The position numbers were made by a program, and so were the translations under genes. DNA of 63,663 nt, counting the filler, from Kipferlia bialata (lineage: Eukaryota): the NCBI GenBank assembly GCA_003568945.1. It is 6 parts of 6 records of this genome, joined end to end, with 100 filler letters (N's around TTAATTAATTAA, not from the genome) between each part and the next. Parts side by side here need not be neighbours in the genome. Positions count along the whole stretch, not along the records: positions 6,785 to 21,078 come from BDIP01000837.1; positions 21,179 to 35,467 come from BDIP01000838.1; positions 35,568 to 49,855 come from BDIP01000839.1; positions 49,956 to 60,187 come from BDIP01000841.1; positions 60,288 to 63,663 come from BDIP01000856.1; 1 more part is not named here. One strand, written 5' to 3'. Under the pieces are notes generated by a model, which saw only the letters and a list, made by a program, of their open reading frames with translations, made no database searches and was not told where the DNA came from. Shown here piece by piece: positions 14,770 to 63,101 of the stretch. Position 1 is the stretch's first letter. Every line of letters begins with the position of its first letter.

Positions 14770-17700
14770 GACTTGTGTCCTCATACCAGTCTAGAGTGTG
14801 ACCGTCTTCAGCACATGGCCTGTGACCCTGACCCCATGACACTCAGACACATGTTCACAGAGACAAGAATAGGTACATATATACATAACTACATATAGAC
14901 TTATCCATACATATATATCCCTCACCTTCAGGCATTGATCACCCCTGTGCCTGTCAGTGATACAGTATATATATACATAGTATGCATGTTGTATCTTTGT
15001 AATGAGTAGTATCCTATATCATTCATTAACTTACCCTTAGGCATTGAGCACCCCTCTGCCTGTCAGTCGTACAGTATATATATTAATTGTGCATATTCCA
15101 TCTTCATAGTATATATATATTTGTATATAGATATAATCCCTTATGATTAGGCATTGAGCACCCCTGTGCCTGTCAGTGGTACAGTATATAATAGTAACTA
15201 TTTATGTAATATTTACTTATTTTTTTATATATATACCCTCACCCTTAGGCATTGAGCACCCCTCTGCCTGTCAGTGGTACAGCACCCTGTGTCCAACGGC
15301 CATGCTGAGGTAGGGACTATATATGTACATATGTATATTCTATATAGGTACTATATTTACTATTGTATACTGTATGTGATACTATTCCTATATATGCCAA
15401 TACAATATGCAACTGTTGCAGCACCATGTGTCCAATGGCAAAGCTGAGGTACAGTATATAGTATATGCAATGTATATACATGATACATGACATATGCAAG
15501 AATGGCAATGCGCAGGCACAGGATATAGTATATACACGTCTGTAGTATAGACAAATCACTACACACTATTAGTAGTACACACTATTGCGAGGCTAAACAT
15601 GTATCAATATTGTCTATCTATTTGCTTGCATATCTCAAATCTTACCCCATAGCTGCGAGAGAACGTGTATAGGGACAGTGGTGCCTTGAAGAACTGAATG
15701 TATTTACATATATCTGTACTCTATGGAGTATATACCACTACCATATTTCTTCTCACCCCTTAGGCTGCGGGAGAATGTGTACCGTGATAGTGGTGCTCTG
15801 CGTGGCATGAGGGGCATGGACGGGGAGGCACGGGAGCTACCCCCCATACCGACATGCAGTGAGAGTGAGAGTGAAAGCGAGAGCGAGAGTGACGATAGTG
15901 GGTGTTCATTCATGGAGACAGAGGGAGAGGCAGAGAGTGAAGAAGAGGCAGAGAGTGAGAAAGAGAAAGATTTAGAGGGAGAGGGAGATGTGGTTATGAG
16001 AGAAAGACCACATGAGGAGAGAGAGGGAGGGATATTGGCTGCACCAGAGGGTGGGGAGAGAGAAGGTGTGGAGAGAGAGAGAGAGACCCATTTGGAGGGA
16101 GAGAGAGAGGGAGTGGAGGAGGTAGACATGCCCCCTGACACACTCTTTGAGGTGGATACCCACTCAGGAGACATTGTATATATTCAGAGAGAGACAGACA
16201 GAGACCAAGGGAGAGTGAGAGAGAGCGCAGGAGACACAGCTGATGCGCAGGGGGGAGAGAGGGAGAGAGAGGGAGAGGATGTGGTGCTTGACTTTGATGA
16301 GGACGGTACCCTCATTGAAGAGGGGACCAGCTTGGTAGCTGGGTCTCTAATCGAAGAGGGAGAGAGAGAGACAGGGACGACAGTGGTGGGGGAGGATAGT
16401 ACTCAATTGGAAGAGGGGGAGGGGGAAAGAGAGAACTTGGATGCCACTATGGTAGAGGATGGGGAAGATGGAGACACACACAGGGAGAAGGGGGTTGTAG
16501 ATAGCACAGTGGGAGATAGTGAGGTGTCGGTTCTGCATGTAGCCGGCTCTCCCAGGTCTTGTCTTGATGTGCCCACTTCACCCGAGACTATCCCAGTTGG
16601 ATCTCTTGCCGCACTTACTGCCACTACAGGTGTAGACAGGGAGAGAGAGGGAGCAGCCGACTCTTCTTTTGCACCTGCGATAGGGGGAGTATCTATCAAT
16701 CCAGTGGCGGGGGAGAAGGGGAGTGAGGGAGAGGGAGAGGGAGAGAGGAAGAGCCTGTGTAGGGTGATCACTGCTACTACTACTCATGACGACCGAGACA
16801 AGGAGGCAGATGGGAGACAGAGGGATACACTCTCCCTTCCTACCCCTACCCCACCCCTCACCCCCTACCAGCCATGTAGGAGAGAGACTTCTACCCCGCA
16901 GCCACCGAAGGAGATGGGGAGAGAGGGAGAGTGCACTCCCATGCCACCATCCTGCACACACCAGGCTGTGCCTCTATCCACCTCTACTGGCAGAAAGAGG
17001 ATACAGTTGGTACCTATATCTGCAGTGGAGGGTCAGGTGGGAGAGCGAGAGACTCTACCCGTGTCCTCAGTAGCACCTCTTCATTCCATCACCCCTACAA
17101 TCTCTGCTCTTCTAAAGGGTTCAGAGAGGGAGAGAGCGGGCAGCGTTGCTGTGGACCTAGATTTCCAGCGGTCTCTCTCCTTCTCCACCCCTACCCCACC
17201 CCCCACCCCATCTCCCGTTAGGAGAAGAGAGAGAGAGAGAGAGACTGTAGCAGTAACACCTACCCTAGCATCTAGGGGCAAGGTGCATAGTGGCACGACT
17301 GTGTTGGGAGGTAGTAGCAAGCGCAAGCCTCTCCAAACGTCTGGACGTTTCAGCGTTTCAACGTCTAATGCATCAGGGGTCACTCCCTCAGTGGATGGGT
17401 TCCATACTATACTCTCTCCTCAAGTACCTCAAGTACCTCAAGTACCTCAAGTTAGAGCTGGAGAGGATGTAGAGAGACAGAGATGTGCAGTGGAAGCCCC
17501 TCTCTCTGATGAAGAGTACCTTCAGCTCTATGATGCGCTGACCAGAGCCAAGACAACGTGTTGTGACAGACACTGCTTGTCCAAGGTACATTGGGAGTAT
17601 AGCCCTAAGTTGTCTCGGAACAAGCACTCATTATATCACATTTGTGTATGTATACATATATGTGTATTTGTTAACGTACATTTATACGCATCTCACCCTC

Positions 17701-26495: not shown

Positions 26496-29478
26496 AGTCT
26501 CATTCCCAGCCAATGCCGCCAAGTCCATGTTTGCCCCCTTGCTCGAGCCAGTGGCTATCAACCTGCTCGGTGGGGATACACTCTCTGTCTATATATACAT
26601 AGTATGGAGATAGTAATTCTATATTACGGTATTGATATATATATTTGTATTTATATATATTTTTATACTGCCAGCTCTGGTGTATCTCCTGCTGAACCGG
26701 TTGAGTGAAACTAGGTCTATCAAATAGAATAGATATCCACCTCACACCCAGCCGTTCTGCTTCTGAGCCACATGGTGTTTGCCAACCTCATCTACTGCAC
26801 ACAGGTACAGGGATGCAGTGGTAGTATCCACACCTGACCTATGAACATATATATATATATGGATACTGAAGTATATAGCTGACCTCATCTATTGCACAGG
26901 TACAGCGATCAAGTAGTGGTACACATCTCACCCAGTTGTGAATTGATTTCTACATATACCGCTCACCCCAGCACTTTGGCAACTCCTCCTCCCGGACCGA
27001 GAGATACGAGAAGGAGGCACTGATGGCATTCTACTTCAGTGTGCTCGGGTATGGTGGTAGTAGCAGTATATATATATTTGCATGACGAGGTGGTAAGACT
27101 TAATAGTCTTGGCCCCGTGTCTGTCGGATACCAGATTGGTCACGTCTGCAGCGTGGCTGGGTTGGATATTTCACGTACCTTGACTCGTATTGTGGATACC
27201 CTATTGCGCTGTGTTTCACCCCAGGTATGATCTGTCCAAGATCAACACATCCCTAGGGAGGCTTCTGGCAGGTAGAGGAAGCCTATATGAAGTTGAACGG
27301 GAACCTCTGTCCTGACGATTTGTTGTCTTCCCTCTCTAACCTATAGGCATCGACACCCTGCTCCAGTCTGTGCTCATGACCCTGTTATATGTATATTGTA
27401 TTATCTCATACATATATATATATTCATGTATTCATAGTGGAGTACCTTTACCCCCAGGCATTGACACCCTGCTCCAGTCTGTGCTCATGACCCTGTTTGT
27501 CTCTGCTGTCACTGTCGTCAGTATCACAGCATCGGACAGCCAGTTCGACCCAGACTCGCTAAAGGTGCGTGTGTTGTACATATGTCATGTACACTCTGTT
27601 TGGTTTGGACAACCCCCTCACGGCTAGGAGTACAGTGTAGCCGCAGTCGATGGGTCTGGCACCTACAACTGGGTAAGTGTGTAATGGAGCCATACACCCC
27701 AGGTCAAGTCAACGGAATGGGTGCTCTCATGCAATAGTATGTGTACTTAACTCCTTAGTTGTACTATTCTTATACAGGTCAAGTCCACGGGTGCCAAAAT
27801 GTTAGACCTCAACAGTGACTACAGCAATGCCCTGTCTCTGCTGCAGACAGGGGGGGCAGACGCCATATGTTCCATGAAGGAGCCACTTAACCAGGTGTGT
27901 GTGTACACGTATATGTCTCGAAGGTTGGTAGTATATGTGTATATTTCCATGGATATCTTCATACCCACCCCCAGGTCATCAAGGACAACCAGGGTCTATA
28001 CAAATATATGTCAATATATGTAATGTATACTCTATATATGTATATGATAATTCATATTCCCACTTGTACATACCCACCCCCAGGTCATCAAGGACAACCA
28101 GGGGCTCATCTGTGAGGTGGACGGTGAGTGGGACATGTATATATATATACCTGTCCCTATCTCTGTTGGCATCTCTTCCTTAACCCCTAGGCCAGTGGAA
28201 CATCACCCATCCATTACAATCCATACTACTACCAGTCATGTGTCTGAATGTATATGTATGTACTTATGTCTTACCCCAGGCCAGTGGAACACACCCATTT
28301 CCATCCATATCCATCCATATCCATTTACACCTATATATTCTATGTACATACACCTATATCTCCTGTATACATGTCCCCTTGACCCTCAGGCCAGTGGAAC
28401 ATCACCCCCAAGGTCGTCTACATCCACGACACATACACTGAGTACGGGGACAACTTCAACGTGGCTCTGCAGGTAGAGAGGTGTATATACACCTTCTAAC
28501 CTAGTTACTGCCCTTCATAGTCATCCCACCTCTGACCCTCGGTTATCTTTCATATACCTAGCAGTCAAATACTCCCCTGATACACACCCCTCACCCCCCA
28601 GCGTATGAAGGAGACCGGAGTGCTGGATGACCTTGCTGCAACATGGCTCGACACACCGGTGGAGGGTACGGTAGTATATGTGTATATATACACGCACTTA
28701 TACAATACTATATGTGTATGTATATATGTATATATATATATATACCGGTCGAGGGTACGGTAGTGTGTGCACACTTGCGTCTAGATAGATATCTTGTACG
28801 GCGTCTGCCACCTTACAGAATGTACTTTTATTGGTATGCCTCAACCCTGTACTAACCTCTCAGCCTGGGGCAACCTTGGTCTGGAGGTTGCACTGTGGGC
28901 ATCCCTGGGACTGCTTGGGGTGGGACTATGGCTAGGTGGGTGCATATATATATATATAGAGAGAGAGAATGATAGATAGATAGATATATATGTAGATATA
29001 TATGAGACCGTGTGGGGTGGGACTGTGGCTAGGTATGTGTCGGTGTGTGTTTATGTGTGTTTCCTTACTGTATCACATACACATGTCTAACCGCCAGGTA
29101 TCCTGACTGTGTCCAAGTTCAGGACCACCCTGGTCAAGAGGAAGGGCAGGGACAAGGTGACTATATATATGTATATATATATGTATATTAGAGTATATCT
29201 ATGTATGAGTCTATAAGAAACACACATTACTACCTATGCTCACCCTTGTCAAGAGGAAGTGAAGGGACATGGTGATATCTATGTGTTTATATATACGTTT
29301 ATATATATATACTACTAACTATGCTCATATTCTTAAGAGAGAGGAAAGGCAGGGACAAGGTGAGGGGAGCTGATAATAGACTAAAATACATAATTACGGA
29401 TACTGATACTACCACCCACACTGATACCAGGTGACGAAGGGGGGTAACTCCACCCTTGGTCCCAGACTAGCTGTGTAA
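25860..29478 (+). CDS. Ionotropic glutamate receptor-like ligand-gated channel, paralog 1 (N-terminal exons missing)
   Basis: Exons: GTDLQVVCVDG / VANDEYPVFFSG..SRLVLDVRPTISFRTGGVG / MFAPLLEPVAINLLAVLLLSHMVFANLIYC (M1) / ALMAFYFSVLGYDL (pore) / NTSLGRLLAGIDTLLQSVLMTLFVSAVT (M3) / S2 ...FNVALQRMKETGVLDDLAATWL / LEVALWASLGLLGVGLWLGIL (M4) / VTKGGNSTLGPRLAV*. Confidence 0.75.
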
Positions 29479-29741: not shown

Positions 29742-32700
29742 ATGACACTCCGGCTGCTGCTAGCTGCAGTGTGTGTGGTGTGTGTTTGGGCATGGGGGTG
29801 TGGGGCCAGTGTGCCTCCTCTGTCTAGGTAGGACTAGTGTATAGTGTGTATGTGTATGTACCTATCCTCACTTGCTTAGGGAGGAGATGTCTCTCCTGAG
29901 GACCGGTCTTAGGGCATGGGCCAAGATGATAGGGGAGGAAGAGGCAGACGCAGAGGCCAAGGAGGTCACAGGGGGTACGTAAGTATGTATATATGAATCA
30001 CGCGAGTTTATCGTTGTCACTTTGTCAGTCTTGGTCAATGGGAGTCTTGATACCCTGAGACGGTTGTGACACTCTACCCACACTGCTCTCTCTCTCTCCC
30101 TCTCCTTCTCTAACCCATCAGTCTCTGGCGACTACACGTTCACATCCGACAATGTGCAGGTATGGTATGGGTGTGGTGGTTGTGTGAGTATAGTCATAGT
30201 ACATGTCGTAGTGGATTGAGTTGTCCTGCCTCTCTGACTACCCGGAATCTGCTCTCTCTCTCATTCCCTGTCATTGCGTACTCTCTCTCTCTCCCACCAT
30301 GCCTCCGTCTGACTCCCCAGATCTGCACCCTGGACTACCCCCCGTATGCATACTGCTCGGAGTCACAGACAAACCCTAGAGGTAGGGACAGCGTATATGT
30401 ATTTCTCCACCTCAGTCTATGTATCATCATGCCAATACCGATCCTCACCCATGGTTTGTGGCTGAGATGATGAGCTTATATATCTATATATATTTATATA
30501 TATTTATATCTATATATCTATACAAATATATATACCGATCCTCACCCCCAGGGTTTGTGACTGAGCTGACCCAGAAGATCAACAGCCTCATGGGTATGTG
30601 GGATGGGTTATGTACTCACTATGTCACCGCATGTGTATATATCATTGGTCTGCCACTGTCTAGTATCTAATGGCGTCACCGTCCCCCCCCCACCCTCTCT
30701 ACCCGTAGGCACCGACCTAGATGTCGTGTGTGTCGAGGGAAGCTTTACAGACGCCGTCACCATGGTATGGTTGCTCTCTCTACTTCTCTCCCTCTCTAGT
30801 ATGGATACTCGTGTGCACTCTTGCCACTCAACCCCCCCCCCCCTCTTTTAACACCCAGGTGGCCAATGACGAGTACCCGATATTCTTCAGGTGAGACACA
30901 CACCAACTATGTATTGATACTCTCTCTCTCTCTCTCTCTCCCTACTGCTATCTTCCTGATCCCTCACATCTCTCGGTGCCACCAACTCATCATTATCTCT
31001 CCCGTATTCGCTCTCCCCCTATCATATTGGTAGTATACCCAAACCTCACACTCAGTGGGGCTAACAACTCCCGGGCTAGGCTTATGATGGATGTGAGACC
31101 CACCATCTCATTCAGAACGGGAGGGGTGGGGTTCGCCACTCTCTGTGACACCAGTGCAAGTACGTGCATCACATACAATATTATTACATACTATGATACC
31201 TGCCTGCTCGTGACGATACTCTCTCTCTCATCTCACCCCCAGCCAGTGCCGCCGCCTCCATGTTTGCACCCCTCAAGGAGCCAGTGGCAGTCAACCTCCT
31301 AGGTGGGGAGGGTTATGGCTGCACACATATATATAGTATATGCTTGTGGCACTCAACCTGCTAGGCGCTTTGTATTTTAATATTTACTATATATATACTA
31401 TATACTATATATTACCATCTTGATACTCCGAATAGTGTCAGACATACCGCTCAACCCCAGCCGTTCTTCTGCTCAGTCACATGGTCTTTGCCAACCTCAT
31501 CTACTGCACACAGGTATGGTATCATGTACCATTTGTACTCTCCAACATGTAGCTATGTCTTGGCAGAACTATTCTTCCCTCACCTTAGCACTGTAGCAAC
31601 TTTCCCCCCGTTCTCTCTCTAGATGTATATTCATCTAGGTTAATTAGGTATCCTTCACCCCCAGCACTTTGGCAACAGTGCTTGTCGGACCCGCAGCTAT
31701 GAGAAGGAAGCACTAATGGCATTCTACTTCAGTGTATTGGGGTATGGAAGTATATGTATTTGTGTGTCATTATTATAATGTAGTCCCACCCTAGGTATGA
31801 CCTGACCAAGATCAACACATCACTGGGCAGACTCCTTGCAGGTATGAGACTCTCTCTACCTATGCCTGCGTACTCCTCTATAACACTGACACCCATATAG
31901 ACTGAGTCTTTGCAGATGGATTTGGTGTCGAGTGAGTATACACACTCTACACTAGCATAACCCCCAGGCATTGACACCCTTCTCCAGTCTGTGCTCATGA
32001 CTCTGTTTGTCTCAGCTGTCACTGTCGTGAGTATCACAGCATCGGACAGCCAGTTCGACCCAGACTCGCTAAAGGTGTGTACTCTGGTGTCACCATATCA
32101 TAGTGCAAGTGAATGTTCTGTCTGTAAAATGCAGTAGAGTACAGCGCCTCTATTATTTGCCCATCTCACACACCAGGACTACACAATAGCTGCCGTACCA
32201 TCTGAGTCGAACACATACGCATGGGTATGTATATATATGTATATATATATATATACCATAATGGAGGTCTCTAATGGAGATTGTGTAGTATACTACTGTC
32301 CTCTCTGTACATGTCTATAGAGTGCACAAGTCCTAGCATCTGGCCTCTCACCCCATGCCAAATCCACCGGTGCCTCTGTGGTAGACATGTCCTCAGACTA
32401 CTCTGACTGCTACACCCTTCTGGAGGCAGGCACAGTCGATGCGTGCTGCAGTATGAAGGAGGTACTACTAGGCCTAGTATAGTCCATCAACACATTACAG
32501 ATAGTATGTTGGTTGTATGTCTATGTGCTACAGTATGGAGGAGGTACGAATATTACTCTGTGAGGTCATATGAATCGTGTAGCCACACTACCTACTACCC
32601 CCTGCAGTATGAAGGAGGTACAAGTGTTATATACAGCCATGTATAGGTCGCACTACTCTTTCCAACCCCTTCCCACCCCCAGCCCCTCAATGAGGCCATA

Positions 32701-33774: not shown

Positions 33775-34196
33775 CTAGATGGGCAGAGCGGGTCTCTTGG
33801 AGGGTGGCTGGGCGAGTGGGGGTGGCTGTGACACGGGCACAGACATGTCCATCCCGTCCATACCTGGGTGGGGGTCCATCCCGGGGTGGCCCTCCATGCC
33901 AGGGTGGGGGTGGGGGTGCGGCTGGTGCGGCTGGTGCGGCTGGTGCGGGTGGCCGTCCATGGCAGAACCGTCGGGGATGGACACGTGGGACTGGATGGTG
34001 AGTATCACGTCAAACAATGCACATATCAATCTTCAACTACACTATACATCACACTACATACCTGCACCTGCCCCCCCATGTGGTCCATGCCCGTGGGACT
34101 CATCCCCTGCACCCCCACCTGGGTATGGTCCATGTCTAGGGTGGCACCCCTGGCCCTCTGCTCAGCCCGGTGGATGGCATGCTGGGGTGGGTATAT

Positions 34197-34236
<40 letters not shown>

Positions 34237-35285: not shown

Positions 35286-35467
35286 CTGGAGGTGAGAACG
35301 GGAAGAGAGAGAGAGAGAGAGAGAGAGTTAGAGACAGAAAGAGAGTCAGAGAGAGAGAGAAGGATATTGTCCCTCCTGGACGCAGTCGCACACCACCGCT
35401 GGAGTTGAGGAGAGATACAACAAGGGGGGGGGGGGGGGGGGGGGGGGGGAAAAGGGGGGGAAAAAAA

Positions 35468-38692: not shown

Positions 38693-38729
<37 letters not shown>

Positions 38730-39708: not shown

Positions 39709-39740
<32 letters not shown>

Positions 39741-40799: not shown

Positions 40800-40839
<40 letters not shown>

Positions 40840-41814: not shown

Positions 41815-41850
<36 letters not shown>

Positions 41851-44369: not shown

Positions 44370-44408
<39 letters not shown>

Positions 44409-46643: not shown

Positions 46644-46682
<39 letters not shown>

Positions 46683-46730
46683 ACGTCGGGCTCCATTGTG
46701 CTGGACCCTTTGTCTCTGACTCTCTCTCTA

Positions 46731-46769
<39 letters not shown>

Positions 46770-46998
46770 CTTACGTCAGGCTCCATTGTCCTCGACCCTG
46801 TGTCTCTGACCCTCACCCTGAGTACTGGGAAGAGACACCTCTCGAGAAAGGCCACAAAGCAGCTAGGTAATGTATTCTATTTTTACACAGCCTCTTGCCT
46901 ATGTCCCCTATTGGATAGTTACTACTATTGCCTATTATTCTCTCTCTGTCTCTCTCTCTCTTTCTACACCCTTTGTTCACGGATATGTCTGTGACATG

Positions 46999-47029
<31 letters not shown>

Positions 47030-47073
47030 CCCCCCCTCTTCACCCTTATTTCAAGGCTATGCCTGTGACACGC

Positions 47074-47104
<31 letters not shown>

Positions 47105-48211
47105 TCCCTTATTCCAAGGCTACGCCTGTGACATGCTGTCTCCCGAGAACCTCCGGGCCCTATCCCACCTCGACGCTCTCTCACTCTCTTCCTCTACAGA
47201 GGGGGAGAGTGAGAGGGTGGGCCCTCTTATGTCCTCTGTCCATGCACTGTTGGCAAAGACACGCTCTGCTGCGTCAGAGACTGTAACGAAGGTATTATAG
47301 TAAATATACAGTATTATATTCAATATATATATACATATAGGATGTCCTCTGTCCATGCACTACTGGCCAAGACACGCTCTGCTGCATCTAGTTCAGTGGC
47401 TAAGGTATATATTAGTATATATGTTAATTATATAAATATGTGTTTCTATGGATATTTGTGAATATTCATATTTATACAAATTCATACCCTATTTTACCAT
47501 ATATATTGACCCCAGGTCCTCTCATCTCACCCTGGTTCCTTCAAGCCATCAGGACCCCACACCAAGGACACAAGGGTACGTTCCGATATAGTTGTGCCAA
47601 TATTTCTTGTGTCTTTAAGACTCATACTAATTCTAGGTCACTCCCTTTGCCGATCTCAATGACGCCCTGGTGCACAGCGAGGGCATAGAGCTAGTAGGTT
47701 AGTGTATATATAGAGAGTGTGCGTTTTGGTGGGTCTTGTGTATATTGAGAGAGAGACCATGGAGCTAGTAGGTACTGCGACTACCTTCCAACTTCTGTTA
47801 ATCCCCCCTCCATCCCCCCCACACACACATTCTTACGTTTGAAGTCTGGTCTGCTCTCGTAATACTCGTAAATCCCTCTCTCCCTCTCTCTCTCTATGTT
47901 CCTCTCCTATTCACCACCAGACGTCTGCTCTGCCTTGGCCAAGCTGTCTGTGGCATCCTTACTCTGTCGCAAGGTATCAGTCCCTCTCCTCCTCTATATG
48001 TATTCGTCCCTTTATATTGAATGTTAAGTTATGTATATAGTTAATATCTAAAGGCCAAGCTGTCTGTGGCATCTTTACTCTGCCGTTAGGTATTAGTCTC
48101 TATCTATCTATGTACACACATTCTATCCATGGAACAAAGTCACTTCATTATTTGGGTGTCTCTCGGTGCCTCTCTCTCTCTCTCTCTTACCACAGGTCTC
48201 CCATACACACG

Positions 48212-48266
<55 letters not shown>

Positions 48267-48735
48267 TTCTCTTTTCTCCTAACTCTAAGATCTCCCATGC
48301 ACACGCCTCTCTGTCTGCCCAGCCATTCATAGACACCGTTACTGCACCCGACAGTGCCAAGGATACACACGTTGAGGGAGACTCCGTTGCCACTCTGCTG
48401 TCAGTACTAGCACTCAGGAGGTATATTGTATTATATATATATATATTTGTATCTACATATTGCAGTATGGAATATATACGTACATGGATTTGTATGTATA
48501 CACATTCATTGGTATAACAAGTCTCATCATCCAGCCAGCTCTCCCAGGCCGGTGCCCTCACGGTAAGACTGCCAGACACACACAACAGGTATAGTATATA
48601 TATTGTATATGCTATATACAATGTATATAGTGTGACTCAGATACCTACACACGAAATTTTCATATAGTATTGTTATCTGTTTGTATTTCCTTTATTCCAG
48701 TGTTGATGGGCTTCTCCTTGTTGCCATTGGTGGAG

Positions 48736-48779
<44 letters not shown>

Positions 48780-48949
48780 GACCCTTATTCTCACATCAGG
48801 ATGGTGCTGGCAATGCCCTGGGCAGACTCATCTCTCTCTCTCTATCTCTCTCTCTCTCGCTAGACCCTTTTTCACATCAGGATGGGGCTGGCAATGCCCT
48901 AGGTAGACTGCTCAGGATGGGTGAGCTGTTGACAGTAGACACGGACTAG
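38130..48949 (+). CDS. Large multi-exon hypothetical protein, Leu/Ser-rich and probably alpha-helical
   Basis: ATG 38130 (MGQQSHLEQLVALQHR / GDECLKSLVGLIRQ) followed by dozens of GT-AG exons to DGAGNALGRLLRMGELLTVDTD* at 48949. No family recognised and not every junction was phase-checked. Confidence 0.65.
40146..40510 (+). repeat. Exon-echo array: exon 3' end plus donor, four copies
   Basis: (GTGCCCAAT)GTCAAGGCN(A/G)TACT(C/G)GG(G/A)GCAGTGTGCTGTGCACAGAG(G/A)AG-gt at about 40147, 40251, 40356 and 40470, separated by TA-rich spacers. Confidence 0.92.
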
Positions 48950-49997: not shown

Positions 49998-50081
49998 ACC
50001 CCCCTCTATATCACATCCTCTACACATATATACACATATATAAAGAGAATATACATTTACATGTGTATAATACACACACAC

Positions 50082-51030
50082 CTGAGCAGGCCCCCTTGCG
50101 AATATGATTGGCCTGACCCCTGGCACAGCGGGTCTCTCCTTCTCAGGGCTGTTCTGGGATAAGTATAGTATATATACATAAAACTATTTAATACTCATAT
50201 ACTACAATATAGTAGACATGCCTCTCCTTCTTGGGGCTGTTCTGAGGGTGAGAGACATATATATATATACTATATTTCTAATGTAAATAGAGTGAAGAGA
50301 ACAATATACTAGAGCATGTGCCTTGTTTGATGCACAGCTGGAAGGGGTCCATAGTATATATACTATAGTATATACACTATATATACAGAGGAGTATAGAG
50401 TATATAGGGTACATATACATGATATACCTTGTTTGATGCACATATGACAGGCTCCGAGCACAGCTGGAAGGGGTCCATGGGCAGACCGGCCATGACACTA
50501 GGCCTCTGTGCAGCCTAGAGTGAGTAAGTACTATATATATATATATATATATACTATATATATAGTGTATATAGAATAGAAAGATGGGCAGACCTGCCAT
50601 GACACTGGGTCTCTGGGCAGTCTGGGGTGAGTATAGTATTTGTATAGTACGTTATATATATATATATATAGTGTTGAGTGTAGAGTCCAGCCATGGCAAT
50701 GGGTCCTTGGGCAGCCTAGAGTGAGGTTATATGCTATATAGCAGGATATGTACTATATACATTCATACAATATGTATATAAGATGATGACACTGGGTCTG
50801 TGCAGTCTTGGGTAGGGATAGACACACATAGTACAAGAGACATGTAGTATAATATACATACTATAGTACACCTGCCACCGAGTCTCTCTCTAGCCTAGCA
50901 TACACGCAATGCAGACCATGCATAATATAGAAGAGTGAATGTGCATAGAATACCCCCCTCATGTCCATATACACTCACCTTAGCCATGGGTAGGGTAGTC
51001 CTAGGCCGCAGGTGGGGAGACACGTGCCTG
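50082..51030 (-). CDS. Hypothetical multi-exon gene, 3'-truncated, start unresolved
   Basis: Exons HVSPHLRPRTTLPMAK / RETRWQ / AAQRPSVMAGLPMDPFQLCSEPVICASNK / NSPEKERPAVPGVRPIIFARGPAQ. The frame is supported by third-position changes in the echo copies. Confidence 0.5.
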
Positions 51031-51562
51031 ATGTGAGCAAAAGAACCAGAAAGAGAGCGCAGGAGAGAGCTGTCGCACCCTAGAAAGCCTGGCATCATAC
51101 AAGAGTACCACAGACAGGCAGGTGCGGCAAACAGGACAGGCGGTGCTCAAACGGTGCTCTGAAACTGCTCAAAGGGGTAGTATGAGCAAGTTGGAGAGGT
51201 CGTTGGTTCGAACAAGTCCCGATGGAGAGGGAGCGGTTGCCACTGTAGAGGACACTGATGACCCGCTCCTGACATGGCATGTCAAAAAGTCTGTTTCTAC
51301 ACCCTTTTGTCAACTTGTCAAAAATGTGGTCCATAAGGGTTTAGTACAGCTTCCTGTACTCAGGACTACATATATATGTGTCTGAGATTTGCAGGATTAA
51401 TACAAGTCCTGTATATAGTGTGACTCTCAAGGTTAGAGAGCACCAAACATACCAATAGATACATAACCGCTAGTACAAAAGGGTCTATTGGTTAAACTGC
51501 GAGCCACTTAAGCAGGTTAGGCGACGAGACTAAGTGTGTCATGTCACCAATGGTGTAGACAG

Positions 51563-54500
51563 CTACTGCTTGACCTGTCTCTGTATGTCGTTGGCTATGA
51601 AGACACACTGGTCTTGTAGTACACCGGCCTGGAGGGAGAGTCTCTCTCTCTCTCCCTCTCTCTCTGAAATACTCTCTTCCAGAGCCTTGCACCTGGATGC
51701 CATGCCCTGTACTATGTCCACACTGCGCTGGATGTCTCTGCCCCTCGAGGCATGTCTGGTGTAAGACTGATACGTACTACTTCAGGTATATTCTATATAC
51801 ACTGTATGTATATAGAATATGGTACATATACTCAATTGACACACTGCGCTGGATGTCTCTGCCCCTAGACGCATGCCTGGTGTGATATAGAATATAGAGT
51901 ATATACAGTATACACACTATATATACTATTAATGACACACTGCGCTGGATGTCTCTGCCCCTTGAAGCGTGTCTGGCATTAGTATACACAGTGCTATATA
52001 TACACTATTTATATTATAATATAAAGTATATGTATACTAATGACACACTGCGCTGGATGTCTCTGCCCCTGGAGGCATGTCTGGCATTAGTATATACAGT
52101 GTTATATATACACCTTCTATACTATTAGGTATATATTGTGTATTATTAATGACACACTGCGTTGAATGTCTTTGGTAATATGATATGAAAAGATGGTACC
52201 GTTACCTGTACTTCATCGAGATGAGCGGCAGCCCTCTCAGACCCAACAGCAACTGGCCAAGGACAAGCAGGGTCTGAAGTGAGTGCGAGGGGTGATTCAT
52301 AAATGTATAGAGTAGTATATATATCTACACAGAGAGAGGGGGAGATCAATGGACTAGCATGGTCTGGGGTGAGTGTTAGGGGTGATTCTCAATTGAAAGA
52401 GAGGTATATGAATATTATATATACAATATATACCTCTGCATCGAAGTCCATCCTTGGTATCTGGGCCAACACAGCCAGTGCCGATGTGCCATTGACAACT
52501 GTGTATATAAATACATATTTATACTTATATACCATATGTACCTCACTATCCATCTCCAACCCTGGTACTTGCCCCAGTACTGCCAGTGCCGATGTGCCGT
52601 TGACAGCCCTCAGGGCAGATATCACAAGGGCATTGAGCATAATGCAAAGAGCCAGAGGGGCCTAGATGGTTAGATGATAAATAGTATGTACACACACACA
52701 TATATATATATATGTATTAATGAATAATCAGGGCAGATATCACAAGGGCATTCAGCATTATGCACATGGCTAGGGGGGCCTGATGTGAAAGATATCTACA
52801 TGCATACAACCCCTTCCACCCGTTCAAATACTAATAAAAATTGTTTATACCATTACACAATTATATATATACTAAAAGGGAAGTGTTTTGTATATAGAAC
52901 ACATAACACAAAAAGAATGAACACAATATACTGTATACTATACAGCATACCTGAAGTGGAACTGTTGGCAGAGACCGGGATGAGACCTGAGGTGAGTACA
53001 TATATGAATGTATGAATAGATTGATTGATTGATAGATAGATATTGTAATATATATAACAGTATTTGACTGTGGGTAGAGACCGAGTGTACATGAGGGGTA
53101 TGGCACAGGTGCACATGGACAAAGAATACGAATAGTGTATTTATATAGTATATACACGATACTATATATATACAATACACACCTCAGGTACCGCTGCTGC
53201 GTTGAATGGCACAGGGGCACATGGGCACTGGACAAGGTCAGCCATGCCCTGGGACACGGTGGAGAGGAGGTGGGTCAGGGGCAAGGATATCTCCTACGGT
53301 TAGAGAGAGAGAGAGAGAGAAAGAGAGAAGGTCAGCCATGCCCTGTGAGACAAGTAAAGAGGAGGAGAGTCAAAGGTAAGGATATTTCCTAGGATGAGTA
53401 TAATGTGTACATATATATACTGTTATAGGTCAGTCATGCCCTGTGAGACAATAAAGAGAAGGTGGGTTAGGGGGAGAGAGATCTTCTGAATGTAGAGAGT
53501 GGGTGACAGAGAGAAAGAGAAAGAGAGGAGATGATTTACCGGCAATTAGACTACACACACCTCTGATGCCAGGAGGAGGGACGGTGGGATACCAGCCCTG
53601 GGTAGACCAAAGCACCTGGGGTGAGATGTGTTATCTCAATATATATATCACACAAGGCAGAACCACAGTGTATACATATGTGCATAGCCATACCTGTTGA
53701 CCAGTGCCGAGTACTCAGCAGCTGTGGCCTGGCAGACAAGGGTCTGGTGTTAGATATGAATGTTATATACATATAGAGAGACAGAGAGAGAAAGACAGAG
53801 ATGGTGGCAGACAATAGCCTGGTATCAGGGAGAATCATGAGGCATCTTCACAGAGAATACATGCCCTAGACGGAGGTAACAACAGGCACAGTATATACTG
53901 TAGAAATTAGTATGAAAAGACATACCCCCATAGGCACCAGTACCCTATAGACAACAGACAGGAAGGGAGAGACATACATGTATTGTATAATGGTATATGT
54001 ATATAATTATATAATGTAACCATACCCCCATAGGTACCAGTGCCCTGTACACATGTCCTAGGAAGGGGGAAACATCATCCCCAGTCTCTGAACCAACCCA
54101 CTGAGTGACAATAGACATGACCATATTAACCACCCGTGACCAGCCCTGACCCTTATTGACCATCATCACGCCTTGACCACAGTTGACTAAAGCGTCTACA
54201 AGCGATGTCTTGTCAGCAGTCGATACAGATACAGCGGCTGAGGTGGAGAGTATGTGCTTCAGCAGACCCAGGATGTCTAGGGGGAGGCTAGAGGGTCTAG
54301 ATGGTCTAGACGGTCCAGACGTTCCATCCTTGCCAGGGGTAGTAGTGGTTGCGTCAGAAGCACTATCACCTATAGTTGTACTCTGGGTACTAGGGGCACA
54401 TAGCTCTCCAAGGCCGTGTGTGGCAATGTCACACAGGACATGCAGGGAGAGCACGGGGAGGCGCTTCGACACAACCTAAATGTGAGCTGTATATATATTA

Positions 54501-57500
54501 CTGTATGTACATACGTGTATGTATGTATATATACATGTATATGATATATATATGATATATATATATGCGGAGGACATGTTGGGAGAGAACGGAGAGGCGC
54601 TTGGAGACAACCTACATGAGGTAACACATTGTACATACAGTACATAAGACACACACATATACATAGAAGAAAGTACCTTGCTGACGTTGAGCAGTCCCAG
54701 TATGGCAGATGTCCCGAGGCCACTGATACATGGTTTACATAGCATCTATGGAATAGGATATATATTAGTTAGTTATACCTTGCTGACATTGAGTAGTCCC
54801 AGTATGGCAGATGTCCCAAGGCCACTGAGCCTAGTAACCACTCCAGCCAGAGATAGCAGGTGGGGGAGGGACTCAGCAGAGAGGGAGAGGGAGAGGGACT
54901 CGATGACAGTAGGGGAGGAGGGGCTGGTACCCTCACCACTACCTGCGGCCATGATAGATGACCACTCAACCTGCCCCTCCTCTCTCTCTCCTCCTTGCTT
55001 GTTTGTGATGTTACTAGTCGACATGGCGTGTCTGGCCAGTTTGACCATGCCACTCATGCATGCATTGACAGTAGAGGGGGTGGAGGAGAGGACACAAAGG
55101 ACACCACGCACGACAGAGACAAGCATCTCATGTTGTGTGTCAATGATGGTATCGTCCTCACTGTTCTCGCTCACTGCCTCAGTAGACGACCCTGTAGGAA
55201 GAGCGTCCTGGACACTCTCCCCACTCTCAGTGGCTTCTGGTTCCTCACTTCCTGCGTCACTCCCTGCCTCTCTCTCTCCCTTGTCAGAGTGGGTTGCAGA
55301 CACATCAGCAGATGCTGCGGGGGAACTGTCCGACACAGAGGGTGTATCAACAGGCGCAGGCCCACTCACTGGAGATGCAGTCTCTGACACAGTACCACTA
55401 GTCTCCACTTCCCCGTGATTGGAACTCCCAGTGGATATTGCCTTGCTCTCCTCAGTCACCGTCTCAGTCTCTCTCTCACTCTCTCCGTTGGTAGATGTCT
55501 GCTCCATCAGGTCTCTCTCGGTGAGGGTTCCATCCTCTAATAGCCTAGTATAAGAGTGTAAATACTCATAAGTATTGGGAAAGGAAATGTATGGAGAGTG
55601 GCAAGAAGAGAGCCTAATGACACATTGTTTACATATAGAAATATGCAGATATGCATACAGCCACCTGGCCAAGAGTGCCAGTACTGAGACCGACACCTCA
55701 GACAGTGCTATACTGTACATATATAGTGGATATATAGTATATAGTACATTGTGTATATATAGTATATGTGTATATGTAATACCTGGCCAAGAGTGCCAGT
55801 ACAGAGACCGACACCTCAGAGAGGACTCTCTTGTCGACAGCCTCACCCCCTCTGCTGAGAGAGAGAGAGAGACCCTCCAGACACTGCTTGGACAGAGAGA
55901 GACCTGGAACAAGGGTGTCGAGACTCTCACTGGCCTGGTATCAGATGCAGATAGATAAGTGAACAATACTGATATTCATATATATATATATATATATACT
56001 GGTGGCTGAGGGTGTCGACACTCTCACTGGCCTGGTATCAGATGAAGACACTCTAGCTGTTCAATAGTACATACTGTTGGCATGGATCATAGGAGGATGA
56101 TATTCATATTGCGTATACAATACCGTACCATGCATCTCGTCGCACTACTGCTAAATATATACTATATATACTATATACATCAAATGTATATAATATATAC
56201 TATATACACTTAGGAGAATATACATAATATAGAACAATTATTACGAACCATGCATCTCGTCGCACATCTGCTGACCAGTCCACTGGAACCTGCCAAACTA
56301 TACACCAAGCATGGATATATATATATATATGTATATGTATATGTATACCGTACCATGCATCTAGTAGCACATCTGCTAACCAACCCACTGGCACATGCCA
56401 CGAGTGAGGGACTAAGGGTGCAGGAGAGGGTGTCTGCCATGACACTCAGAATCGATAGGGGAAGGGTGCCTGTCTCTCTCTCTCCCTCTACACCCTTTGA
56501 CACTCTACCCAGAGACAGCATCAACTGTTCACAGGCATACTGGTGGAAGGGGGGGACACCCACATACCCGGTGCTCCCTTGCTCTGTCTGGATAGGTAGT
56601 ATAGTCTCCAACTCTTCCTTTCTGTATGTACAGCCGGAGACCCTCTGATAGTGGGAGAGATCGGACCTGGGGTTACTACACATACTAAAACTAAGCAAAG
56701 ACATATCTGTATACAGCAAATAGTATCACATAGTATGAAGAACTGAGCCGGCCTTAAGGCACCGATGCCTATACATGGGGTGGTCCAAATGCTACCAGTG
56801 ATATGTACACACATATATGCTTTGTCACAGTAATATAAATAGTATATACATATATATAACACATTGTATATATAAAACAGTAATAATGAAATAGTATAAT
56901 AGTATATATATTAAAAGTAGTATAATAGTATAATACATACCTTGTGCTACCATCACCAAGTAGTGAGACAGGATCGATGTATACACATGGGCTGGTCCCA
57001 AATGCTAGCAACGATACATACATATATATATATATGCGTTTACCTTGTGCTACCATCACCAGGCAGTGAGACAGGAGGGCCCACTGATGGTGTGATATCA
57101 TTCTCTGCAATGTGGGTCTGGTACATGTCAAGGGCGGTCTCAATAGCGTTCCTGCTCAGGGATATGCCTATAGTAAGATAAAACATGTAATGTATGTACC
57201 ACAAAACATCCTGACCCCTGAATGGATACATGTCTGTCCCCAACACTCTCTGATAGTGTATGGGTCTACATTAGGCTATCCATATTCATACAGCAGCATA
57301 CAACCAACCTGATGCTTGAAGATGCATACAACTGTCCCTAACCCTGTCTACCATTGCATGTGATATATGTATATAATATATATACAACTACATACCTGAT
57401 CCCTGGAGGTGCATGCATCGCTCCTTGACCCTGTCTGCTAGGGCATGTGATAGGTGCAGTGTCTGAGGGAGTGTCTTGGGCACAGTGTCAGACACAGCGA

Positions 57501-60187
57501 GGGGGTCACGCTCTAGATCTCTATATAGTCTAGTATTAGCATAGGATAGTGTAGAGAGAGAGAGAGAGAGAGAGAGTGTGTGTGTCTTGGACACAATGTC
57601 AGACACAGATAGGGAATCGCGCTCAAGGTCATTATATAGTCTGAAAGTCAGTTAGTATTAAGAGAGAGAGAGAGATTGAGTGTCTTGGACACAGAGTCAG
57701 ACACAGATAGGGGGTCACGCTCAAGGTCTCTGTATAGTCTAAAGGTCAGTTAGTATTAAGAGAGAGAGAGAGAGAGAGAGAGATGGTCTTGGACACACTG
57801 TCAGAGACAGCTAGGGGGTCACGCTCAAGGTCTCTGTATAACCTAGTGTTATCAGAGTATCTATAGAGAGAAAGAGAAGAACTATGATAAAAACACACAT
57901 ACCTGATTAGCACACTGTCCGGTATATTCTTGCACTCCTCTGCATATTTCAACATATGTATATAAACATCTCTATATATATTTATTATACAGATTTACCT
58001 TATGAGTACACCATCTGGTATGTCTCTGCACTCCTCTGCATATTTCAACATGGACACAAAGGCAGGGGCAGTCATGGTGTCTACTGTACCTGTAATGAGA
58101 TATGTATAATAGATTAGATAATAATGCAGAATCCAATAAATACACATATATACATGGACACAAAGGCAGGGGCAGTCATGGTGTCTAAGGTACCTAGAGT
58201 AAGTAGGAGGAGAGACAGAGTAAGGGCAGGGGGGGGGGGAGGTAGTACACCTACATACCCTTCTCGAGTGATGTGTTGAGCATCAAAATGGCATAGACCG
58301 TAGCACATATTAACACATACACATAAGTATTTGCATAAATAGCTTTGCCACTTCTTACCCTTCTCGAGTGATGTGTTGAGCATCAGAATGGCATAGAGCA
58401 GCAGGTGGGCCTGTTTGACACTGTCAATGCGGCACATAGAATCCCTCTCTCCCTCTATATCAGTCTCTGCATCCTCACACTCAATGCTCAATACAGGTGC
58501 ACTTGTGTCCCCAAGTGTACCCCCTCTGTCATAGAGTATCTGGGCAAGGGCGTGGAGTACTCTGTCTACGGCCTGGCCCTATCATCAGGGGAATACATAT
58601 AGACATACAGTGAATCCACGTAGACTAGTATACATATCATTGGTTATAAACACACACACATAAGGTATAGCAAAGAGAACAGATATTGATGGTGTTGGAG
58701 CAAAACACAGTATAAATACATGGGGTATGGTACTACGCACAAGATACCCACCTCTCCACATATGAGGCACGTGCTGCATATATAGCGCATCAGGGGGATG
58801 AGGGGAAGGGGTCTCTCTCTCTCTCCCTCAACCTCTCCTTTAGTGTCTCCGTCTCTCTCTCTCTCTGTAGAGGAGAGATACCCATCACACATACTGTGGA
58901 GGTAGCTCTGCAAGACAGGAAGGTCACTGGCCCCACTCACTAGGTCAAACACCCTCTGGGGGTCTAGACCCTTTAGTGAGGCCAGTAACTGACCGGTGGC
59001 AGAGGGGGTGAGGGTATCAGCCTCTAGATACCGTCTGGCCTGTTTGAGGGATGATGCCGATATGCAGTGCGTGACGGCAGAGACGAGTAGCTTCCTGAGG
59101 TAAAAGAGTCTATAATTCCTCTACAAACAACCTGTATATAAATGAGTGTATAGTGATGAGGCCGATATGCAGTGCGTGACGGCAGAGACAAGTAGTTTCC
59201 TGAGGAGTAAGAGTCTATAATTCCATTACTAACAACCTATAACTGTATATAAGTGAGTGTGTAGTGATGATGCCGATATGCAGTGTGTACCGACAGAGAC
59301 ATAGGGTTTCCTGAGGTTAAAAAATGTGTGTGATACATGTTCATACTCCTTACACTATATGTATAGTTATAAGAATTACATGAATATGAATAAACACCAT
59401 ATATACCACTGAACAACTTGGTGATATACTTACTCACATATATCATAATGGTTACTAAATGTATACCTACAGAGCATGTTTGGCACTGATGTAACCCCAT
59501 CCGTCGCCATTGTGCTGTCAGGGCTGGACAGGCTGCATATGGTGGATATCACAGACAGGGCAGCAGAGGAGCGGGGAGTGCTTGCACCTTCACCTAGTGT
59601 GAGGAGAATAGATAAGAAGTAGGAAAATGAAAAGTACAATACTATACAACACTAGTACATGGTATCTATATGGTGGCAGATGAGCGAGAAGAGGGAGCCT
59701 AACCATAATCAGAATACCTATCCACAATAGTGTACTAATACTACGATAGAAGCTTGAGATACTAGAACAAACACAAATATACCTGCCGCAGAGCACACTG
59801 TGTAAAGCTATCCGGCATATTGTAATCCTATGACAATACATTATGTATATATGATGATGATCAGAGTATATCCTATGTATACCTGCCGCAGAACAGACCG
59901 TGTCCAAGAGCATAGGCAGCATGAAGCCCTTGGTGGATGCCAGGTCAAAGTGGACACAGAGTGCCTGGTGGTAAGTAGAGGGTATAGGGAGAGATAGAGA
60001 GAGAGAGAGAGAGAACAACTATGAGCAGCTCAAAGAGTACACAAAGTGCTTGATGGGGTAGAGAGAGAAGAGTAGAGTAGTGAGACAGAAAGTAACTCGA
60101 ACTGAATGCCATGTGAAGAGAGAGAGAGAGAGGTGGGGGGGGGGGGGGTACCTGTAGGAAGAGAGGACGCATTTGCAAAAGAGAGAA
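51563..60187 (-). CDS. Large multi-exon alpha-helical (HEAT/ARM-like) hypothetical protein, 5'-truncated
   Basis: Many amphipathic exons (e.g. SAALSVISTICSLSS, HLLLYAILMLNTSLEK, LPVLSLHVLCDIATHG). Terminal exon RHASRGRDIQRSVDIVQGM...IQRQVKQ* with stop at 51563-51565. Confidence 0.65.
51720..52180 (-). repeat. Exon-echo array: acceptor plus first 36 nt of the terminal exon, three intact echoes and one degenerate echo
   Basis: cag-(A/G)CA(T/C)GCNTCNAGGGGCAGAGACATCCAGCGCAGTGT at about 52046-52081, 51937-51972 and 51841-51876, with the complete exon starting near 51756. Confidence 0.93.
57470..57850 (-). repeat. Exon-echo array: acceptor plus about 58 nt of exon start, four copies
   Basis: Copies encode RLYRDLERDPLAVSDSVSKT, RLYRDLERDPLSVSDSVSKT, RLYNDLERDSLSVSDIVSKT and the complete RLYRDLERDPLAVSDTVPKT, separated by (CT)n tracts. 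Confidence 0.92.
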
Positions 60188-60294: not shown

Positions 60295-60339
<45 letters not shown>

Positions 60340-60400: not shown

Positions 60401-63101
60401 GGGCGCTGTCTTTGCCGTTGGATCTAGGTTCAACCACTCCTGCACCCCTAATGTGTCCAAGGTGTGGGTGGACAGGAAGAAGAAGGTGTGGAGACTGTAT
60501 TTATACTATTTATACTATATATACTATATATACTATATATACTATATATACTATTTATCCATTTTCAGTATTTTTTGCCTCCTGATGTGTCCAAGGTGTG
60601 GGTGGACAGGAAGAAGAAGGTGTGGCTACTATATATATTTACACTATATATTGTATATACTATGGATACTATATATCCATTAAGGTGGACAGGAAGAAGA
60701 AGGTGCGTGGATTCTACAGTGAATAGACTCCAAATTTAAGTCTTATGAATAGACTCTCAGTCTGATTCCACACTTCTTTTGCCTCCATGGGGATTTGGAC
60801 CCTCGGTCCAGAAGATTGCAAGTACAGTGCCCTCTCTCATATACAGGTATCTGAACGCTTCACTGCTGCCAGGGACATTGAGGCCGGGGAGGAGCTGACC
60901 ATACACTACTGCGACATCAGGTACGCCTCATATATATATCTATGTGATCTAACATATTTGTCTCATAAATATATGATATGTAGGGCTGACCATACACTTC
61001 TGCGACATCAGGTGGGGTCACTTGCATTGTATATGTTTGCCTTCCCGCTGAAACCCTCCAACTTTTCTAACCTACAGGGCTGAGAGGTCCTTCAGGCGCA
61101 CAAAGCTCGAGGGATCATACCACTTCACTTGTGAGTGGCCTAGTGTCTATATGTACTCTCTTACTGGTTCTTAGCTAGTATACCTGGGACATCAGTGTTG
61201 CTTTCTGCAAGGACATCAGTGTATTGATAGATACTCATATAGGTGTATATTGATATTTATTTTGTAAATTGCTCAATACAATTGCATTATTATGTATTCA
61301 ATCCAGGCACCTGCCCTGACTGTATGCTGGAGGGTGATGAGAGGAAGGCATCCGATGAGGCCAGAGAGAGGATGGCCCACCTGACAGGGGAGGTACCTAT
61401 CTCGTGTGATTTGCTATTGACTCATAACTTCAACTCACTTCTTCTGATGGTTACTGTCTATTATTGAGAGAATGGCCCACCTGACAGGGGAGGTACGTCA
61501 CCTCTCTTATGGACCCTTATGACCTAGTATGAACCCTTAGTTCATGCACTGTTAAACCCTTACTTCAGCTCCCAAACATGGCCAGGGCCGCTTTCAAGGG
61601 TGTAGACGCCGCCAGAGAGGTATATATTTGTCCATCGTTTGGTCCTTCCTACTAACTACTCTATTCCTGTGATTATATCTCAGCTTCTTGCCCCATATGT
61701 ATTCCCCCCTAATCACATTCCCAGTATATATATCCGCCCACATATGTCTTCCCACAAGTATATATGTATATATTGTTCTCTCTCACCATAGCTCCTTGCC
61801 CTGCCTGTAAATGATTATATTAGCTAATACACGCAAGTATATATATATACTCTATGTATATGTCTCATTTCTAGCTTCTTGCCCTCCATGAGACCCACCT
61901 CCATGCCCTGCCTGTCTATGTCAGACAGGCTGCATACCAGGGGTTCGAGATGGCACTGTACAAGAGGTGTATATATATATATACACTCTCTAAAGTAGTT
62001 GAATAGTATGTATTGTTATTGGCTGCATACGAGGGGTTCGAGATGACACTGTACAAGAGGTGGGCACCGTGTATCTATTCTATTATGTATATATAGTATA
62101 GTATAGTGTGTATATGTGTTCATGGATGTGTAGTATTGTGTATATATACTCTATTAGAAGAGGGATTCGAGATGGCACTGTACAAGAGGTAGTTCTGCTC
62201 TCTGAAGTAGTGTATTTGTCGTCTCCTATTTATGTGCCTCTTGACTTGTGCTGACCGCAGGGATATCGCTGAGGCCCGTGGGTTCATCTACAGAGTCCTG
62301 GCTAACCAGATACTGATGGAGGTACTTTCTCTTCTCTCTCTCTCTCTCTCTCTCTCTGCCCTTTGCTGAATATGAATTGCTCTATCCATGTCTATTGTTA
62401 CTCTTCTTGGACCCCTATAGAGTATATCTGTGTAAGTGCATAACAACTGTTGTTGAACATCTCATCCCAGGGTGACGGCCACCACTGCACCGAGTGGCGC
62501 AAGTACTGTGAGGACCCCTCTACCCACCGCATAGCACAGGCACAGGGACTCAAGTCGGTAAAGAAGGTCAGTATGTAGATTTCCCTTGTTGAGGTGTTGG
62601 TCATCTCGCTCCCACTCTCGCTCTTTCTCTTTTTACCACCAGCCCTTTGAGATGCCTCCCTATTATTCTCTCTCTCTCTCCCTCTGACCCCAGCCCTTTG
62701 ACATGCCTCCCTATTATTCTCTCTCTCTCCCCCTCTAATTCTAGCCCTTTGAGATGCCTCCCTATGAGTCCATGGTGGAGATCAAGCCAGCAGTGGAGGT
62801 ATGCAGTTTACCCATAGAATCACATTATCGACATGTTGCCAATTTTACTACAGTGATAGTACTATATGTACCTTTATTACATTTCATGTTTACACAGGAG
62901 CCCGTAGAGGATGTAGAGGCCACGTGTATAGTACATATGTATTAATAGTTTTATACACTTTAAGTTGTATTTACCCAGGAGCCAGAGCCTGTAGATGATG
63001 CTGAGAAGGATGTAGTGTCCAAGCCCAAGAGTGGCTCTTCAGGTGCTGGTAAGAAGAAGAGCAAGGGGAAGAACAAGAAGAAGAAGGGCAAGAAGAAGTG
63101 A
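60401..63101 (+). CDS. SMYD/Set5-type SET-domain lysine methyltransferase, 5'-truncated
   Basis: Spliced GAVFAVGSRFNHSCTPN, AARDIEAGEELTIHYCD, post-SET YHFTCTCPDC, a helical C-terminal region and a Lys-rich tail ending TGA at 63099-63101. Confidence 0.92.

Follow-up and report, generated by a model that had tools for sequence, protein, structure and literature searches.

Partial copies of exon edges in the introns of Kipferlia bialata differ from their exons mainly by silent changes

We analyzed 63,663 nucleotides (nt) of the Kipferlia bialata genome (GCA_003568945.1); all counts given here come from this window, in which N-linkers of 100 nt connect six pieces. The species, a free-living fornicate, possesses 124,912 GU-AG introns (PMC5874029). 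In the window, 70 of 149 introns contain what we call echoes: partial intronic copies of the edge of an adjoining exon. The duplicated unit comprises one exon edge, its splice site and ~65 nt of intron, and lies inside the intron. Echoes differ from the complete exons predominantly by silent changes, in excess of what neutral decay would leave, and missense changes become more frequent with distance from the splice site. We hold with moderate confidence that echoes are tandem partial duplications which are refreshed by crossovers with the live exons of other alleles in a population that outcrosses diverse haplotypes.

Exon models were obtained for 13 genes, one by protein mapping and twelve with a small predictor and by hand. 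All 13 exon chains read open from complete exon copies only, without any echo; eleven of the models are our own predictions without outside support, and two match public K. bialata proteins. A 255-amino-acid (aa) exon (54779-55543, minus strand) is 100% identical to KIPB_004083, a Sec7-domain protein that maps exactly onto the 19 exons of the gene at 60172-51566 (minus strand), complete copies only. Likewise, a 57-aa exon (47121-47291) is identical to KIPB_004078, whose gene (38539-48949, plus strand) has 37 exons in our model, and 939 aa of the chain 38539-48588 are found letter for letter in this protein. If GC donors are allowed in exact spliced mapping, KIPB_004078 is routed through the echoes at 40764 and 42195, which stems from the order of the search. 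Because the complete copies there yield the same protein, protein data cannot decide between the use of echo and exon, and because silent variants are indistinguishable by protein identity, the match is uninformative on alternative mRNAs. At the 3' end of this gene (48701-48949, plus strand) the annotation ends in another frame than our model. In the frame of the model, all differences between the echo at 48781 and its exon are silent (4/4), which hints that the annotated last exon of KIPB_004078 is wrong.

Each intron was aligned to its own flanking exons, with detection on exon letters only, so that splice sites gave no help. The 70 introns have a match at a score of at least 22, compared with 0.37% of 5118 control alignments to the exons of other genes; a self-scan returned 143 near-repeats spaced within 600 nt. 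From a total of 117 matches we defined a strict set of 92, which score at least 28 and are either edge-anchored or score at least 40; the 25 weak or off-edge matches that were dropped before the main counts include two in the genes at 113-9572. The strict set has a clear polarity: Acceptor-side echoes begin at the 5' edge of the exon in 48 of 49 cases, donor-side echoes finish at its 3' edge in 40 of 43, and none of the 92 reaches the far exon edge. The AG is kept in 42/48 acceptor echoes and the GT in 39/40 donor echoes. Each intron side carries 1-4 copies of 20-58 nt (5th-95th percentile), with a median of 34 nt that applies even where the exon measures 200-1800 nt. Together with a spacer of ~65 nt they form a repeat unit with a median of 104 nt (quartiles 94-115), and introns with echoes have a median length of 245 nt, those without 117 nt.

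A preliminary description of this DNA had reported one to four intronic copies of about 15-60 nt that retain a splice site, with acceptor echoes before and donor echoes after the complete exon, and the catalogue bears this out. Its view that the pattern is window-wide has to be narrowed, as the distribution is patchy: Echo density is unequal among genes (P = 3e-7), the Sec7 gene having echoes in 16/18 introns and three genes at 113-9572 in 0/27 at a score of 25. Either selection against echoes or cold recombination could underlie this scarcity. The gene models at 113-9572 give the impression of resembling more conserved housekeeping proteins.

The strict echoes carry 325 differences from their exons, of which 203 are silent, 115 are missense and 7 are stop changes, so that the silent share is 62%. 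Counted at the codon level the share is 186/296, and all 117 matches taken together yield 228/382 (60%). Neutral decay is expected to produce 27-29% silent changes; this null is too lenient, since silent changes accumulate in the live exon as well. A stricter null, in which the live exon is frozen at missense sites, predicts 42-45% and is exceeded as well (P ≤ 2e-10). A cluster bootstrap places the silent share at 55-67%, with the 42-45% ceiling exceeded in all 5000 bootstraps. The share remains high when shared variants are counted once (179/293) or the ends are trimmed (163/254), and the frozen-exon null passed through the aligner reaches a mean of 0.43 and a maximum of 0.48 in 60 runs. In the wrong reading frames the silent count drops to 51/325 and 47/325, and the excess is gone. 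Among changes private to one echo, for which the null expects neutrality, 37 are silent and 35 non-silent (P ≤ 5e-5 versus neutral). The annotation-backed subset from the two long genes, which omits the echo of the last KIPB_004078 exon where annotated 3' end and model differ, contains 166 silent changes among 250.

Expressed as the ratio of nonsynonymous to synonymous differences per site (pN/pS), the divergence between echo and exon amounts to 0.19-0.25 overall and to ~0.09 in the first 10 nt from the splice edge. The differences resemble those between functional alleles in this ratio, as unequal crossing-over predicts. The comparison of introns with their flanking exons against a neutral null had been proposed in the preliminary description. 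The claimed coding-like divergence stands in an unselected count and also against the stricter null, and silent changes are the majority, as had been claimed, but not close to 100%. The six individual examples stand up with minor corrections. The three donor echoes at 40251-40510 (plus strand) show exactly the reported 7 silent changes and one I/V exchange, and 54677-54724 and 42965-42997 are silent at 3/3 differences each. At 51841-52081 all changes are indeed silent, but the aligned blocks contain 6/6 and not 7/7, and at 56249-56285 the 5/5 silent changes are reproduced, with two missense changes following beyond the claimed end point if the echo is extended to 56295. In place of 8/8 at 15653-15688 we count 5 silent changes and one other at 15652-15684; the odd one belongs to a CGT/AGG double change in an Arg codon, which is silent at the codon level.

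In 10-nt bins from the splice edge, missense changes per site amount to 0.022, 0.045, 0.077, 0.065 and 0.066, and silent changes per site to 0.25, 0.26, 0.16, 0.27 and 0.14. The near half of the echoes holds 117 silent and 34 other changes, the far half 72 and 82. The odds ratio of this contrast is 3.9, versus 1.3 (maximum 2.3) from simulated aligner bias, and the contrast holds overall after trimming of 6 and 10 nt. The changes also differ in direction: GC>AT changes outnumber the reverse by 57:16 among non-silent and by 85:61 among silent differences (difference P = 0.004). The AT-biased non-silent changes read as decay laid over coding divergence, and 12/92 strict echoes contain a stop or frameshift.

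The similarity between exon and echo stops at the splice dinucleotide. Beside the 35 echoes with an exon identity of 95% or more, the flanks have an identity of 0.57 versus 0.53 in the null, with only 3/35 above the 95th percentile of the null; clearly homologous flanks exist in only 11/88 exon-echo pairs. Copying from the same chromatid would duplicate the flank too, and under neutrality its intron and exon parts would be equally diverged, whereas 32/35 flanks are at background; the unrelated flanks thus speak against a same-chromatid origin. The splice sites of echoes match the live ones in strength and score as high as the live site in 22/48 acceptors and 20/40 donors. A partner splice site near the break-off point is present in 1/48 acceptor and 0/40 donor echoes (background 9% and 7%; each P ~0.06), which together with the stops and frameshifts agrees with the earlier statement that many echoes lack a partner site or break the frame. 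On the same counts we rejected, as unlikely, a canonical use of echoes as cassette exons. Precise re-splicing is possible in 16/92 echoes, through AG/GT in 6 and AG/GC in 10 (background 14% and 20%), and AG/GT re-splicing was rejected because 6/92 allow it against a background of 14%.

The break-off of acceptor echoes leads into dinucleotide repeats in 28/49 cases versus 22% background, that of donor echoes in 10/43 without enrichment. The break-off point is identical across all copies in 6/16 multi-echo clusters. In the acceptor echo at 61792-61813 (plus strand), the first 10 nt of the exon are joined to sequence 24 nt further at direct repeats of 5-6 nt: This echo carries a deletion between short direct repeats. 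One further echo has a 20-nt gap.

In the mechanism that we propose, an echo would arise from a break in an exon, one end of which copies the exon edge and part of the intron of the homologue and is rejoined via polymerase-theta-type end joining; only those products would survive in which one exon is complete and the additional splice site has no partner. The polarity follows because any tandem duplication straddling a splice site leaves one complete and one cut copy. Thereafter, crossovers would be confined to exon blocks because allelic introns would be hard to align, and the exon of an echo-free allele could pair with an echo rather than with the complete exon. Such a crossover would overwrite the splice-side portion of the echo, together with its flank, with live sequence from a different allele; the far end would go on decaying, and this renewal beside an old far end would generate the missense gradient. 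Pairing between echo-bearing alleles would extend arrays with a common break-off point. The spliceosome would pass over echoes for want of a partner site on the other side of a short exon. Unequal recombination between alleles, one of three models put forward in the preliminary description, is the best fit, but a single capture is insufficient, as the missense gradient requires repeated exchange.

The sufficiency of such exchange, and nothing beyond it, was addressed with a toy forward simulation of one locus (N = 250; three replicates for each regime), which is not a fit. Four clonal regimes with collapse or conversion led to silent shares of 0.30-0.41 and to missense changes that do not rise outward, which counts against same-chromosome conversion, another of the earlier models. 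Outcrossing at low diversity gave a share of 0.40. At a theta of 0.2, outcrossing gave 0.50 when the crossover/mutation ratio was 1, 0.75 when it was 4 and 0.85 when it was 15. Missense changes rose outward in these regimes, 2-2.6-fold at ratios of 1 and 4; the observed values lie between these two ratios. In the simulation, silent excess and gradient thus arose only with outcrossing among diverse alleles. The gene repertoire of the organism is compatible with these steps: According to one survey, no non-homologous end joining (NHEJ) is reported from metamonads, Fornicata have lost Rad51A and possess Dmc1 paralogues (PMC8516963), and K. bialata is listed with Spo11, Dmc1, PolQ and Hap2 (PMC8516963, Supplementary Data 2). 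Dmc1 is described as stabilising mismatched joints (PMC6719624).

Several points weigh against the outcrossing model. The silent excess rests mainly on the two long genes, because the other 37 echoes show only 37/75 silent changes (49%), which differs from neutral decay (P = 7e-5) but is in line with the frozen-exon null (P = 0.26). The missense changes are barely more conservative than random (P = 0.045), and trimming by 10 nt removes the significance of the gradient in donor echoes alone (P = 0.14). There is no consistent tendency for the nearest echo to be the most similar to the exon (8 versus 6 of 16), and a serial outward displacement of echoes is unsupported by the same counts. The narrow unit length (median 104 nt) has no explanation under the model. 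The implied allelic silent distance is ~0.17, and the model would require an allelic silent diversity of ~0.17-0.2 as well as intron divergence far outpacing that of silent sites. No second allele or isolate was found, so the allelic origin is something that we infer. Among the candidate proteins listed there was no shorter relative, and among the longer ones listed only the K. bialata protein itself, an outcome that argues weakly against a second assembled allele; the 393 pattern matches in metagenome contigs include none confirmed as a relative. Finally, the HORMAD1/Hop1 row of the survey lists no K. bialata gene, and sexual or parasexual processes have, according to the survey, not been directly observed in Metamonada (PMC8516963).

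An alternative that dispenses with continued outcrossing is a one-time capture from a diverged homologue, in which breaks were repaired from the second haplotype during an earlier diploid or hybrid stage, leaving echoes, before heterozygosity was lost. We regard this as unlikely, if still to be reckoned with. It accounts for the silent excess, the unrelated flanks and the strong splice sites; Dmc1-only, NHEJ-less repair would favour homologue templates, and the patchy silent divergence of two tandem paralogues (P = 0.003; described below) suggests that exon-limited exchange can occur without sex. Capture of this kind nevertheless predicts even decay along the echo, whereas missense changes rise about threefold from the splice site, and arrays of 3-4 copies with silent-rich private changes (37:35) would need more than two haplotypes or repeated exchange.

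It is distinctly unlikely, in our judgment, that echoes are same-chromatid tandem duplications which decay neutrally, perhaps with conversion, so that the silent excess would come from selection acting on the live exon, combined with unequal mutation or with chance in a small number of genes. Tandem geometry alone would explain the polarity, the 11/88 pairs with recognisably homologous flanks are of the expected kind, and the 37 echoes outside the two annotated genes fit the frozen-exon null. The 42-45% ceiling is, however, exceeded overall and in 5000/5000 cluster bootstraps, the clonal simulations stay at or below 0.41, and such duplications can yield neither unrelated flanks beside identical exon parts nor the gradient.

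A third possibility, also among the three earlier models, is that the repeats are in use: The echo splice site would sometimes be chosen and the transcript or the DNA rejoined at the repeat, with the result that echoes are translated and selected. Selection would then act most often near the splice site and produce the same gradient, full-strength echo splice sites would be expected, and the GT is kept in 39/40 donor echoes, above expectation for decay at half the silent distance (P = 0.001). We nonetheless consider this improbable: Stops or frameshifts affect 12/92 echoes, non-silent changes are AT-biased like decay, the 16/92 echoes that permit AG/GT or AG/GC re-splicing are below background, and the unrelated flanks are explained no better than by alleles. 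To our knowledge, no such repeat-guided joining of cellular mRNA has been described. The specific version in which K. bialata expresses echoes through entry at the echo site and homology rejoining to the complete exon at the 20-60 nt repeat, in RNA or in the DNA of part of the population, every copy being sometimes translated, appears more improbable still.

Very improbable, lastly, is that a short-read assembler concatenated the haplotypes of a mixed culture, even though concatenated alleles would give silent-rich differences with unrelated introns and the ~104-nt unit is close to a typical Illumina read length. The published K. bialata draft is a fragmented short-read SPAdes assembly (PMC5874029), but each echo ends in an exon-to-intron junction foreign to any single haplotype, exact matches between echo and exon extend over 44 nt at most (31 nt or more in only 10/92), echoes carry stops and AT-biased decay, and separately built contigs of one sequencing run contain 0.98 of 1073 words sampled from 50050-60040, where break-off-junction words make up 5.7%. 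As that run is possibly the source of this DNA, the contig match checks the assembler and not the library. A second run, which may be RNA, has a share of 0.32, near the 0.30 that the modelled exons would give, and is given no weight as evidence.

A search of titles and abstract openings, with thin coverage of subscription journals, returned no account of such a pattern, either for Kipferlia or for any other organism. The closest known systems share single traits with it. One-sided invasion, or microhomology-mediated template switching with polymerase-theta end joining, would likewise create short templated tandem insertions, but it is known from repair assays and rearrangements and not as a standing feature of half a region's introns (PMC4888836). 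The dinucleotide-repeat break-offs of acceptor echoes (28/49) and the 24-nt deletion between direct repeats are in keeping with it, whereas donor echoes are without repeat enrichment, and template switching alone gives no silent excess or gradient. Tandem exon duplication, or internal gene duplication, which is found in 7-17% of metazoan genes and as a rule copies exons in full (Letunic 2002; Gao and Lynch 2009, cited in PMC3342872), similarly leaves direct exon copies in the introns of the same gene. It differs in that whole exons are copied and spliced in a mutually exclusive manner, while echoes are partial, without a partner site and present in 70/149 introns; a whole-exon copy with both acceptor and donor is not among them, as no echo reaches the far edge. 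Introns can also be gained when AGGT-bearing exon segments are duplicated in tandem in the genome. There too the spliceosome makes the duplication harmless, but the copied sequence is purely exonic and a new intron results (PMC3443670), whereas echoes duplicate an existing splice site. A duplicated AGGT that could serve as new donor and acceptor occurs in 6/92 echoes versus a background of 14%. We regard the pattern as ordinary machinery at unusual density, with a signature that makes cryptic sex in metamonads testable.

The echoes are distributed over the window as follows. Between 14932 and 15684 (plus strand), alignment places three acceptor echoes (14932, 15041, 15151), all with one common break-off point, and a donor echo (15414) around the exon 15249-15309, followed by the acceptor echo of the next exon at 15652-15684. 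A donor echo of 41 nt at 18964-19004 (plus strand) is identical to its exon with a flank identity of 0.60, which is in the background range, and an acceptor echo lies at 19071-19107 (plus strand). The adenine deaminase gene (21244-24582, plus strand; 12-exon model with PF13382 on the long exon) has two strict echoes (23003, 23487); its model uses a GC donor at 23427, although the introns counted in the genome paper are GU-AG (PMC5874029), and a GT 4 nt downstream is also open with a different acceptor. A Gln/Pro/Met-rich gene on the minus strand (33775-35398, 6-exon model) has five strict echoes, and the exon 36786-36737 (minus strand) has an acceptor echo at 36848-36873. Outside the coding models, two 35-nt near-repeats lie 121-134 nt apart at 36348-36556; similar duplications may therefore occur in untranslated or intergenic DNA too. 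KIPB_004078 contributes 31 strict echoes, for example those at 40251-40510 on the donor side and at 42137-42322 on the acceptor side (three each, plus strand), and KIPB_004083 contributes 25, with acceptor arrays at 51840-52174, 57582-57840 and 59152-59300 (minus strand). Eight more, at 60581-62719, belong to a modeled ten-exon gene (60401-63101, plus strand) with an NHSC motif that we take to be SET-type. Long open frames with Kelch-repeat matches are found at 1932-3047 and 12548-13078 (plus strand), the former apparently intron-free in an intron-rich genome.

Two tandem paralogous gene models (25860-29478 and 29880-33419, plus strand) hold nine strict echoes in the first and one in the second and share their intron positions. 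Their same-length exon pairs are 69-96% identical with intron flanks at background, and silent divergence is uneven among the exons, as if conversion were limited to exons; as a general trait here, either exon-limited exchange or very fast intron change would give this picture. The tandem paralogue was rejected as a source of echoes, since the echo variant equals the paralogue base in 2/9 cases. At 32347-32357 (plus strand), an acceptor-like motif ends in AT where the paralogue exon starts after AG; the model uses an in-frame AG 36 nt upstream, which makes the motif a candidate lost or non-canonical acceptor.

In practical terms, both gene prediction and the mapping of reads can be led astray by echoes in the K. 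bialata genome. They also bear on how its reduced spliceosome, for which 87/174 proteins and no small nuclear RNA candidates were found in a study whose available part makes no mention of such intronic repeats (PMC6679479), defines exons, as strong but unpaired sites would be ignored; they further point to one way in which introns may grow, in steps of ~100 nt, and to the effects of Dmc1-only, NHEJ-less repair on gene structure. Should echoes be expressed, they would reveal a repeat-guided joining system unknown in cellular genes. If they are the exon edges of other alleles, hidden sex would be recorded in the genome of a group in which sex is unseen and for which the existing evidence consists of gene inventories (PMC8516963). 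One genome sequence would then record allelic diversity (silent ~0.2) and recombination at many loci, and with 124,912 introns (PMC5874029) both diversity and recombination rate would be estimable from existing data.

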